Part shown: in pieces, positions 13,130 to 16,745 of the stretch
How positions within the stretch are numbered: the stretch's first letter is position 1
Layout: the number at the start of each line of letters is the position of its first letter
DNA from: Escherichia coli
GTDB lineage: Bacteria > Pseudomonadota > Gammaproteobacteria > Enterobacterales > Enterobacteriaceae
Assembly: GCF_003334385.1 (NCBI RefSeq)
Contig: NZ_QOWN01000011.1
Direction: 5' to 3' (one strand)
DNA length: 64,000 nt
The notes under the pieces: generated by a model
What the model saw: the letters and a program-made list of their open reading frames with translations, nothing else
The model's database searches: none
Told to the model about the DNA's origin: nothing
Translations under genes and position numbers: made by a program

Positions 13130-14494
13130 ATGAACGATTATAAAATGACGCCAGGTGAGAGGCGCGCGACCTGGGGTTTAGGGACCGTATTCTCGTTGCG
13201 CATGCTGGGCATGTTTATGGTTCTGCCGGTTCTGACCACGTACGGCATGGCTCTGCAAGGTGCCAGCGAAGCATTAATCGGTATTGCCATTGGTATTTAT
13301 GGTCTGACTCAGGCCGTTTTTCAGATTCCGTTTGGCCTGCTTTCCGACCGCATTGGTCGCAAACCATTAATTGTCGGTGGGCTGGCGGTGTTTGCCGCCG
13401 GTAGCGTTATCGCTGCGCTTTCCGACTCCATCTGGGGAATTATTCTGGGCCGGGCGCTACAAGGCTCTGGAGCAATTGCCGCCGCCGTTATGGCGCTGCT
13501 TTCCGATCTCACGCGCGAACAAAACCGCACCAAAGCGATGGCGTTTATCGGCGTGAGCTTTGGCATTACCTTTGCCATTGCGATGGTGCTTGGCCCGATC
13601 ATCACTCACAAACTTGGGCTGCACGCGCTGTTCTGGATGATCGCTATTCTGGCAACGACCGGCATTGCGTTGACCATTTGGGTTGTGCCCAACAGTAGCA
13701 CTCACGTACTTAATCGTGAGTCCGGAATGGTGAAAGGCAGTTTCAGTAAAGTGCTGGCGGAACCGCGGCTGCTGAAACTCAACTTTGGCATTATGTGTCT
13801 GCATATTTTGCTGATGTCGACGTTTGTTGCCCTGCCCGGACAACTGGCTGATGCAGGGTTCCCGGCGGCTGAACACTGGAAGGTCTATCTGGCGACAATG
13901 CTAATCGCCTTTGGCTCGGTCGTGCCTTTCATTATCTACGCTGAAGTTAAGCGCAAAATGAAGCAACTCTTTGTCTTCTGCGTCGGGTTGATCGTGGTTG
14001 CGGAAATTGTGTTGTGGAACGCGCAAACGCAGTTCTGGCAACTGGTGGTCGGCGTGCAGCTTTTCTTTGTGGCGTTTAATTTGATGGAAGCCCTCCTGCC
14101 CTCACTTATCAGTAAAGAGTCGCCAGCAGGTTACAAAGGTACGGCGATGGGTGTTTACTCCACCAGCCAGTTTCTTGGCGTGGCGATTGGCGGTTCGCTG
14201 GGCGGCTGGATTAACGGCATGTTTGACGGTCAGGGGGTATTTCTCGCTGGCGCAATGCTGGCCGCAGTGTGGCTGACAGTCGCCAGTACCATGAAAGAAC
14301 CGCCGTATGTCAGCAGTTTGCGCATTGAAATCCCGGCGAACATTGCCGCAAACGAGGCGTTAAAAGTGCGTTTGCTAGAAACTGAAGGCATCAAAGAAGT
14401 GTTGATTGCAGAAGAAGAACATTCAGCTTATGTGAAAATCGACAGCAAAGTGACGAATCGCTTTGAGATAGAACAGGCAATTCGTCAGGCATAA
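13130..14494 (+). CDS. yajR: MFS transporter YajR
   Basis: 454-aa protein starting MNDYKMTPGERRATWGLGTVF; internal start within the supplied ORF 12932..14494. Confidence 0.9.
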   Translation: MNDYKMTPGERRATWGLGTVFSLRMLGMFMVLPVLTTYGMALQGASEALIGIAIGIYGLTQAVFQIPFGLLSDRIGRKPLIVGGLAVFAAGSVIAALSDSIWGIILGRALQGSGAIAAAVMALLSDLTREQNRTKAMAFIGVSFGITFAIAMVLGPIITHKLGLHALFWMIAILATTGIALTIWVVPNSSTHVLNRESGMVKGSFSKVLAEPRLLKLNFGIMCLHILLMSTFVALPGQLADAGFPAAEHWKVYLATMLIAFGSVVPFIIYAEVKRKMKQLFVFCVGLIVVAEIVLWNAQTQFWQLVVGVQLFFVAFNLMEALLPSLISKESPAGYKGTAMGVYSTSQFLGVAIGGSLGGWINGMFDGQGVFLAGAMLAAVWLTVASTMKEPPYVSSLRIEIPANIAANEALKVRLLETEGIKEVLIAEEEHSAYVKIDSKVTNRFEIEQAIRQA

Positions 14495-14509
14495 AAAACG
14501 CGGCGAATT

Positions 14510-14596
14510 GCCTGCTGCGCTACGCTTATCAGGCCTACAAAGTTTCTGAATTACAAACCTTTGTAGGCCGAATCAGGCGTTCATGCCGCATCTGAC
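14510..14596. repeat. Pair of REP elements in inverted orientation (BIME-like)
   Basis: GCCTGCTGCGCTACGCTTATCAGGCCTAC and GTAGGCCGAATCAGGCGTTCATGCCGCATCTGACA between convergent yajR and yajQ. Confidence 0.7.
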
Positions 14597-14621
14597 ATGA
14601 ACAAAACGCACATAGTCGCGA

Positions 14622-15113
14622 TTAATCGCGGAAGTTTTTGAACTGGAACGGCTGACCGAGATCGCCACCACGTACCATCGCCATGACAGCCTGCAAATCA
14701 TCACGAGATTTGCCCGTTACGCGGATTTCATCGCCCTGAATTTGCGCCTGCACTTTCAGTTTACTGTCTTTGATCATCTTGACGATTTTCTTCTGGGTCG
14801 CGCTCTCAATGCCCTGTTTCAGTTTCGCTTCCACAAACCAGGTTTTACCGCTATGAACGATATTCTCCGGTACATCCAGCGAACTGCCTTCAATGCCGCG
14901 CTTCAGCAGCTTGGCACGCAGAATATCCAGCAACTGATTGACCTGGAAATCGGACTCGCTCAACACTTTGATGGTTTTGCTGGCGTCGTTCAGCTCAAAT
15001 GAGGCTTCAACGTTACGGAAGTCAAAACGGGACTCCACTTCGCGGCTCGCGTTATCGACCGCGTTACGTGCTTCCTGAAGATCAACTTCAGAGACAATAT
15101 CGAAAGATGGCAT
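14622..15113 (-). CDS. yajQ: YajQ nucleotide-binding protein (UPF0234)
   Basis: 163-aa protein starting [20 protein letters not shown]; internal start within the supplied ORF 14622..15281. Confidence 0.9.
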
Positions 15114-15190
15114 CTTTTCCTCTCCCTTCATTTTTGATGCGAAGCATAATACCCGCAAAGTTAAATAACCGACAGTCCTGCACCAGGACG

Positions 15191-15238
15191 TATCCCTTAA
15201 TTGTGCATAGTCGCAACAGCATGCACAATTAAGGGATA
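15191..15238. promoter_or_regulatory. 18-bp perfect inverted repeat in the yajQ-panE divergent intergenic region
   Basis: TATCCCTTAATTGTGCAT, 12-nt spacer, ATGCACAATTAAGGGATA; 43 nt upstream of the panE ATG. Confidence 0.5.
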
Positions 15239-15280
15239 GCCTTATTGAACACCCGGAGTGGTTGCGGGTGAGGAGGAACA

Positions 15281-16745
<1,465 letters not shown>

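Follow-up and report, generated by a model that had tools for sequence, protein, structure and literature searches.

We consider it likely that the 48-bp palindrome between the divergent genes yajQ and panE of Escherichia coli works at two levels, at the RNA level as a hairpin cut by RNase III and at the DNA level as a core promoter read in both directions, and that this arrangement goes with a rewiring of the locus in Escherichia. The palindrome itself is not a discovery: it is already on record both as an RNase III site and within a divergent locus known to give dsRNA. What we add is the coincidence of the hairpin with the transcription starts of panE and of a secondary yajQ promoter (P2), the restricted distribution of the element, its one-strand conservation in Citrobacter, and the promoter changes found in Escherichia, all of which we infer from published maps and from sequence comparison.

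The window, by which we mean the whole 64,000-nucleotide stretch of E. coli DNA analysed, carries yajQ on its minus strand (ATG at 15113). The plus strand has panE, which begins with an ATG at 15281 and is followed by yajL, and a spacer of 167 nt (15114-15280) separates yajQ from panE. In the stretch examined here, the reverse complement of NC_000913.3 (MG1655) 444400-444800 matches the window at 100% identity. The inverted repeat is as the first-pass annotation had claimed, with two 18-nt arms that are 100% complementary to each other around a 12-nt loop, and the distances given for it are also correct: 43 nt from its right end to the panE ATG, and 78 nt from the yajQ ATG to its left end. It is the sole perfect inverted repeat in the window with arms of at least 12 nt and a loop of 3-20 nt. 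The longest arm in Markov simulations is at most 14 nt, and an analytic calculation gives an expected number of 18-nt inverted repeats of about 2e-5 for the window and about 1e-3 for a genome of 4.6 Mb. The palindrome is real and far above chance expectation. Table 1 reports the coordinates of the palindrome and of the features around it.

Table 1. Features of the yajQ-panE intergenic region and its surroundings, in window coordinates.
Feature	Position	Strand	Remarks
yajQ P1, main proximal start	15139	-	444657 in NC_000913.3; 79 and 92 reads in two conditions
yajQ P1 -10 box TATTAT	15146-15151	-	conserved across Enterobacteriaceae
Small palindrome GTCCTG-CAC-CAGGAC	15175..15189	both	Escherichia-specific; at the site of the ancestral panE -10 box GCGCTATACT
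Palindrome, 48 bp	15191..15238	both	loop 15209-15220; K-12 NC_000913.3 444558-444605
Left arm TATCCCTTAATTGTGCAT	15191-15208
Right arm ATGCACAATTAAGGGATA	15221-15238
yajQ P2, secondary start	15194	-	444602 in NC_000913.3 (PMC6131387)
yajQ P2 -10 CACAAT	15205-15200	-	left arm; 17-bp spacer, start 6 nt after
panE -35-like TTGTGC	15201..15206	+	left arm; read from sequence
RNase III-dependent position	15223	-	MG1655 444573 (PMC5371410), mapped here
panE -10-like CACAAT	15224..15229	+	right arm; 17-bp spacer, 7 nt before start
yajQ P2 -35 TTGTGC	15228-15223	-	right arm
panE-yajL start	15236	+	right arm, 3 nt in from its outer end; 444560 in NC_000913.3; 45-nt leader
Overlap of panE mRNA and long yajQ leader	15236..15380	both	145 nt; p19 dsRNAs fall within
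panE leader hairpin CACCCG / CGGGTG, 6 bp	15250..15270	+	adjoins the Shine-Dalgarno
Distal yajQ start	15380	-	inside panE, antisense; PMC3415461, upstream sequence maps uniquely to the window
Distal yajQ -10 box TACAAT	15387..15392	-	inside panE codons

As RNA, the palindrome has a folding energy of about -30 kcal/mol whichever strand is read (z = -6.7 and -6.1). The stem has 18 Watson-Crick pairs plus flanking pairs, and it has the long duplex of an RNase III substrate, which is roughly two helical turns. The hairpin is kept in both the MFE and the centroid folds of the whole yajQ leader (276 nt folded). A terminator scan reports no intrinsic terminator at the palindrome, where the stem is AT-rich and neither arm is followed by a T run, and scanning the region 14000-16500 against Rfam gives no match at the palindrome with E-values up to 10.

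The palindrome has been known since 2017 as an RNase III cleavage hairpin in the long yajQ leader, so that the earlier remark of knowing no regulator for the site is outdated (PMC5371410). From the RNA-seq coverage of the wild type and of an rnc deletion mutant, Gordon, Cameron and Pfleger (mBio 2017, PMC5371410) report a site at 444573, annotated “Intergenic (panE-yajQ)”, where the mutant has 96 reads and the wild type 2-3. This coordinate maps to the third base of the right arm, in the stem and close to the loop. The same authors confirmed cleavage at the panE-yajQ site in vitro, using purified RNase III and 5’ RACE; their templates map to 15068-15832 (panE sense) and to 15419-14682 (yajQ sense), and both span the hairpin. 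The stability change is shown for yajQ, with an mRNA half-life of about 6 min in the wild type and about 3 min in the rnc deletion (PMC5371410), and in an rnc-14 strain the yajQ mRNA is at 0.56-fold (Huang et al. 2020, PMC7373196 supplement). Gordon et al. also noted that, the hairpins being complementary, similar structures could arise in yajQ-sense and panE-sense RNAs, and they proposed that cleavage by RNase III leaves a protective 5’ structure (PMC5371410). The palindrome is the yajQ member of the stabilising class of that study (ahpF, pflB, yajQ), and in its RNA role it does not differ from the class: it shares a long perfect duplex in a 5’ leader, a coordinate in the stem, an rnc-dependent cut and a processed mRNA that is stabler. 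What goes beyond that paper is that the panE and yajQ P2 starts lie on the same DNA, and that the element is a lineage-restricted insert.

Overlaying published start maps on the palindrome places the panE start and one yajQ start (P2) inside it, and two other yajQ starts (P1 and a distal one) outside. The distal start comes from Kim et al. 2012 (PMC3415461 supplement), who list one yajQ TSS, at 443640 in NC_000913.2, with 29 reads and a 5’ UTR of 267 nt. The panE-yajL start (444560) and the yajQ P2 and P1 starts (444602 and 444657) come from the SMRT-Cappable-seq data of Yan et al. 2018 (PMC6131387 supplement, NC_000913.3). After a coordinate shift of 776 nt, the two datasets agree on the starts of the neighbouring genes yajR and thiI; for yajQ, neither lists the starts of the other. 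The primary transcripts from yajQ P1, from yajQ P2 and from panE do not include a complete hairpin, and only the yajQ leader from the distal promoter has all of it, at +143 to +190. That both arms occur together in one RNA in vivo follows from the distal start taken with the reads at the site in the rnc mutant. The idea of a very stable hairpin in either of the divergent 5’ UTRs thus stands for yajQ, where the hairpin is present in the distal leader and is cut by RNase III, and it falls for the primary panE transcript of E. coli, which is without the full hairpin because the mapped panE start is inside the right arm.

Entries in Huang et al. 2020 (PMC7373196 supplement) independently support the start of panE as well as the distal one of yajQ. 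There, RNase III dsRNAs of 21-22 nt captured with p19 are found at 443641-443777 (NC_000913.2), and the 5’-end cluster of panE is cross-referenced to the immunoprecipitated dsRNA “MS-115, Divergent, 443638-443836 / 443638-443780” and to a pair of TSSs, 443641(+) and 443783, that overlap by 142 nt. Over their overlap (Table 1), the panE mRNA pairs with the long yajQ leader to form a dsRNA that RNase III cleaves. The locus is in this respect like other divergent loci with overlapping 5’ UTRs, having captured 21-22-nt duplexes inside a 145-nt overlap. The cut in the palindrome is of a different kind from MS-115-type dsRNA. Its position is 443797 in NC_000913.2, outside the intermolecular overlap, and therefore it is a cut in an intramolecular hairpin, with which the single-transcript in vitro assays agree.

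At the DNA level, the palindrome spans positions -45 to +3 relative to the panE start and, on the other strand, positions -45 to +4 relative to the yajQ P2 start. The centre of the palindrome is at 15214.5, so the exact mirror image of the panE start is 15193, and P2 is within 1 nt of it. Each arm offers a candidate -35 element for one direction and a candidate -10 element for the opposite direction, with identical hexamers both ways (Table 1). The spacing fits a sigma-70 promoter (spacer of 16-18 bp, start 6-8 nt past the -10) exactly in both directions, with 17 bp between the hexamers and starts at 7 nt (panE) and 6 nt (P2). These hexamers match the consensus at 3/6 and 4/6 positions, and a consensus promoter scan at the default threshold finds none. 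Because the hexamers are weak and missed by the scan, the two-way reading rests on the mapped, cap-selected starts. We read the palindrome as the putative core promoter of panE-yajL and, on the other strand, of yajQ P2. A literature search, which was not exhaustive, found no description of the coincidence of hairpin and promoter, or of the mirror layout. The bidirectional promoters described by Warman et al. 2021 and 2026 share a pseudo-symmetric -10 and have starts that are 18, 10 or 23 bp apart. The palindrome is like that class in being a short symmetric DNA from which RNA polymerase would start both ways, but we reject it as a member: its two starts are 42 bp apart, and its two -10 elements are separate. 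Here each -10 overlaps the opposite -35, and the symmetry comes from a long inverted repeat and not from the -10 hexamer.

Amongst 5,426 complete E. coli genomes, the 48-mer is present in 5425, at one locus each (the two matches reported per genome are the palindrome matching itself on both strands). It is identical in 5384/5425 (99.2%), and 41 genomes have a variant. The 48 nts of the left flank (15143-15190) are identical to those of the window in only 2000/5425 genomes (36.9%), and the right flank (15239-15286), which includes the panE leader, Shine-Dalgarno and start, is identical in 5288/5425 (97.5%). E. albertii has an identical 48-mer, and all its differences in the spacer fall in 15143-15190. 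In the genome NZ_CP019256.1 (strain 13TMH22), an IS1203 element (IS3-family, about 1.3 kb) is inserted in the right arm at the equivalent of window positions 15226-15228, inside the panE -10 hexamer and with a 3-bp duplication (CAA). This clinical strain has the sole insertion-interrupted palindrome among the genomes listed, and it shows that an intact palindrome is not essential. The first-pass annotation had proposed a search for further copies of the half-site. The 48-mer has no second locus in the E. coli genomes; in the window there is no other half-site even allowing 3 mismatches, and 72,556 plasmids and 50,697 phage records give no match to the palindrome.

The divergent arrangement of yajQ and panE is kept across Enterobacterales. 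The conservation check in other enterobacteria, also proposed at first pass, finds the palindrome or its insert only in Escherichia and in the Citrobacter freundii complex among the genera compared. Salmonella, Enterobacter, Leclercia, Kosakonia, Cedecea, C. amalonaticus/farmeri and Citrobacter sp. RHB25 have spacers of 113-145 nts without palindrome, and altogether the insert is absent from Salmonella, C. amalonaticus/farmeri and more than 20 other genera. In these insert-free genera the box GCGCTATACT or TATAAT is conserved, about 45 nt ahead of the panE ATG. A homologous but imperfect stem of about 23 pairs is found at 10 loci of the C. freundii complex (werkmanii, youngae, braakii and relatives), 2 nt after a TATACT box. 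Judging by these spacers, the element is an insert of roughly 60 nt that is restricted to certain lineages and lies between the ancestral panE -10 box and the panE leader hairpin adjacent to the Shine-Dalgarno.

That leader hairpin is conserved by covariation: across 22 Enterobacteriaceae 93% of the cells are paired, 3/6 of its pairs are changed on both sides, and its covariation exceeds that of all 500 shuffles. Erwiniaceae have stems at the same position with different sequences. There is no matching Rfam family for this hairpin.

The Citrobacter stem favours one strand. It folds with -22.7 to -32.5 kcal/mol in the panE sense and with -6.9 to -21.7 kcal/mol in the yajQ sense. Over its 23 pairs, in 8 closely related sequences, standard pairing is 94.6% in the panE sense versus 72.8% in the yajQ sense, and there are 10 positions with G.U in the panE sense and 0 in the yajQ sense (binomial p = 0.002). 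The changes in these 8 sequences are one-sided and of the G.U type, and none is a double-sided compensatory change. A replication-strand mutational bias is ruled out as the cause of the G.U asymmetry: the plus strand of the window is C-rich with a negative GC skew, and such a bias would act in the opposite direction. Assuming that the TATACT box is an active promoter in Citrobacter, the pairing pattern suggests that the stem is maintained there as RNA in the panE leader, and it would probably be at the very 5’ end of the panE mRNA.

Escherichia differs in several respects. In place of the TATACT box it has GTCCTGCACCAGGAC, the small palindrome at 15175-15189, which in the yajQ sense is predicted by folding to be a 5’-terminal stem-loop of both the P2 transcript and the RNase III product. 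The stem is all Watson-Crick and thus equally stable in both senses. The -10 box of the distal yajQ promoter is TACAAT in E. coli and E. albertii; in most other genera it is TGCAAT, without the A at -11, and the two correspond to synonymous Cys codons of panE (TGT vs TGC). From the codon comparison, a silent change in the panE coding sequence appears to have created an antisense promoter, the distal one of yajQ. A search for intermediate Escherichia lineages by means of PanE variants found none, the loci being Citrobacter-type or on contigs that are too short.

Other spacers have changes of their own. Kluyvera has an unrelated insertion of about 55 nt after the TATACT box, and one metagenome-assembled genome has another, of about 45 nt and further left, which may resemble an ERIC/IRU fragment. 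The yajQ-panE spacer may be a hot spot for insertions. Its left half occurs in two types, one common to Escherichia, the C. freundii complex and C. amalonaticus/farmeri, and the other common to Salmonella, Enterobacter and Citrobacter sp. RHB25. These two types, taken with the patchy distribution of the insert, hint at recombination or at an ancestral polymorphism at this locus.

Terminal stem-loops at the 5’ end protect mRNAs from 5’-end-dependent decay, as in the ompA leader. The Citrobacter stem starts 2 nt after the -10 box and would be expected at the 5’ end of the panE mRNA, and the small stem-loop would open both the P2 transcript of E. coli and the RNase III product. The difference from ompA is that protection of yajQ is a proposal of Gordon et al. 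only, and protection of panE is putative.

We have weighed these results against four other readings. In the first of them the palindrome would be a promoter only, or else a neutral leftover of an insertion, and RNase III cleavage of a rare long leader would be incidental and unselected. This would agree with a main yajQ start, P1, that bypasses the hairpin, with an effect on half-life that is twofold, with the one strain that tolerates an IS element in the palindrome, and with a distal promoter that hinges on a single synonymous base. It has to contend with the palindrome being the most conserved part of the spacer in the 5425 genomes, and identical in E. albertii despite a differing left flank, with 18 pairs that are all Watson-Crick, which exceeds what a promoter needs, and with the homologous Citrobacter stem, where maintenance of the pairing is strand-specific. 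We consider this reading unlikely.

Conversely, the palindrome could be an RNA element only. The panE and yajQ P2 ends would then be processing products at the base of the hairpin, and panE would be transcribed from further upstream. Both ends are indeed 3-4 nt inside the 3’ arm in their own sense, close to the base of the stem where processing is possible, the hexamers are weak, and some RNase III products are known to mimic mapped promoter starts (Gordon et al., PMC5371410). Against a processing origin, SMRT-Cappable-seq selects 5’-triphosphate ends. RNase III products carry monophosphate ends. Moreover, 443783 as an overlap end, with p19 dsRNAs that end at 443777, fits a panE RNA that starts there (PMC7373196), and the RNase III position is near the loop and not at the base of the stem. 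E. coli has lost the ancestral upstream -10 box, and the supplements PMC3415461 and PMC6131387 list no plus-strand start upstream of 15191 from which panE could otherwise be transcribed. An element confined to RNA is on these grounds improbable.

The first-pass annotation saw in the palindrome the geometry of a dimeric transcription-factor operator, and one may think of NtrC or of another dimeric or oligomeric protein controlling panE and/or yajQ. The inverted repeat, with arm centres 30 bp apart, has a suitable geometry, and any protein bound to it would cover the panE core promoter. A genomic-SELEX-chip peak of NtrC at 443,846 (41% intensity) is in the panE/yajQ spacer (PMC8743547), and we find three NtrC-like half-sites 21-22 bp apart, TGCACCA at 15179, which lies within the small palindrome, TTGTGCA at 15201 and TGCACAA at 15222. 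However, the SELEX fragments were 200-300 bp long and selected in vitro, and the peak is not assignable to the palindrome itself. The best match to the 17-bp NtrC box TGCACCAnnnTGGTGCA or to its core GCAnnA-nnn-TnnTGC is 9/14, reached by single half-sites only, and a 9/14 match occurs 154 times in the window; the two half-sites in the palindrome are wrongly oriented, with 14 nt between them where the box has 3. In Citrobacter the arms differ at 10 positions with pairing kept on the panE-sense RNA, where a symmetric DNA site would predict otherwise, and the element is absent from most relatives with the same gene pair. With a low-resolution SELEX peak as the sole protein-DNA datum, no full NtrC box, and asymmetric Citrobacter arms, the operator is not supported, and there is little chance that it accounts for the palindrome. 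The half-sites are suggestive at most, and protein binding would be a possible additional role, itself improbable, and not the explanation.

Finally, it is very hard to believe that the palindrome belongs to a dispersed repeat or mobile family (REP/BIME, ERIC, MITE), even though the element is an insertion relative to most relatives, Kluyvera and one metagenome-assembled genome have unrelated inserts of their own in this spacer, and the palindrome is, like REP/BIME, an intergenic inverted repeat able to form an RNA hairpin. It occurs at one locus per E. coli genome with no copy elsewhere in the window, in plasmids or in phages, has no Rfam match and no visible target-site duplication, and differs from REP/BIME in being single copy, in its 18-bp perfect stem, in lying in a promoter/5’ region rather than at convergent or co-directional gene ends, and in being AT-rich, unlike the REP consensus.

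Returning to the palindrome as both RNase III hairpin and two-way core promoter, we picture the steps as follows. A minor, Escherichia-specific yajQ promoter inside panE gives rise to the 267-nt leader, the leader folds the 18-bp stem-loop, and RNase III cuts it, as others have shown. The processed yajQ mRNA is about twice as stable, probably because the new 5’ end is directly followed by the small stem-loop at 15175-15189. The first 145 nt of the long leader are in addition antisense to the 5’ end of panE, giving the RNase III-cleaved dsRNA that others have shown. The same 48 bp would act as the core promoter of panE-yajL and as yajQ P2, a promoter reading that we put on published starts. As for the origin, a roughly 60-nt insert would have arrived just downstream of the ancestral panE -10 box. 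In the C. freundii complex it would still be a panE-leader hairpin, whose G.U pairs are all on the panE-sense strand. Escherichia would have lost the old -10, perfected the stem, moved panE initiation into it and gained the distal yajQ promoter. A stronger version, which we offer as tentative and somewhat doubtful, is that the palindrome is a mirror-symmetric two-way promoter as DNA and the RNase III hairpin of the third yajQ transcript as RNA, an Escherichia rewiring of a panE-leader hairpin insert in which the symmetry has been selected for both roles.

With three independent published maps overlaid, the RNase III hairpin and the panE core promoter come to be the same 48 bp, with mirror-image starts. 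The promoter layout would be an unusual one, distinct from the described bidirectional class. The species compared would form a compact series of regulatory rewiring, from no insert, to a one-strand RNA hairpin in Citrobacter, to a perfect palindrome in Escherichia with the old promoter lost and an antisense promoter gained. The genes involved are panE (pantothenate, coenzyme A synthesis), yajL (a protein deglycase in the RefSeq annotation) and yajQ, and since they are housekeeping genes the physiological stakes are probably modest. If the proposal is true, the expression of panE/yajL and that of yajQ would be coupled by promoter occupancy, by antisense pairing and by RNase III.
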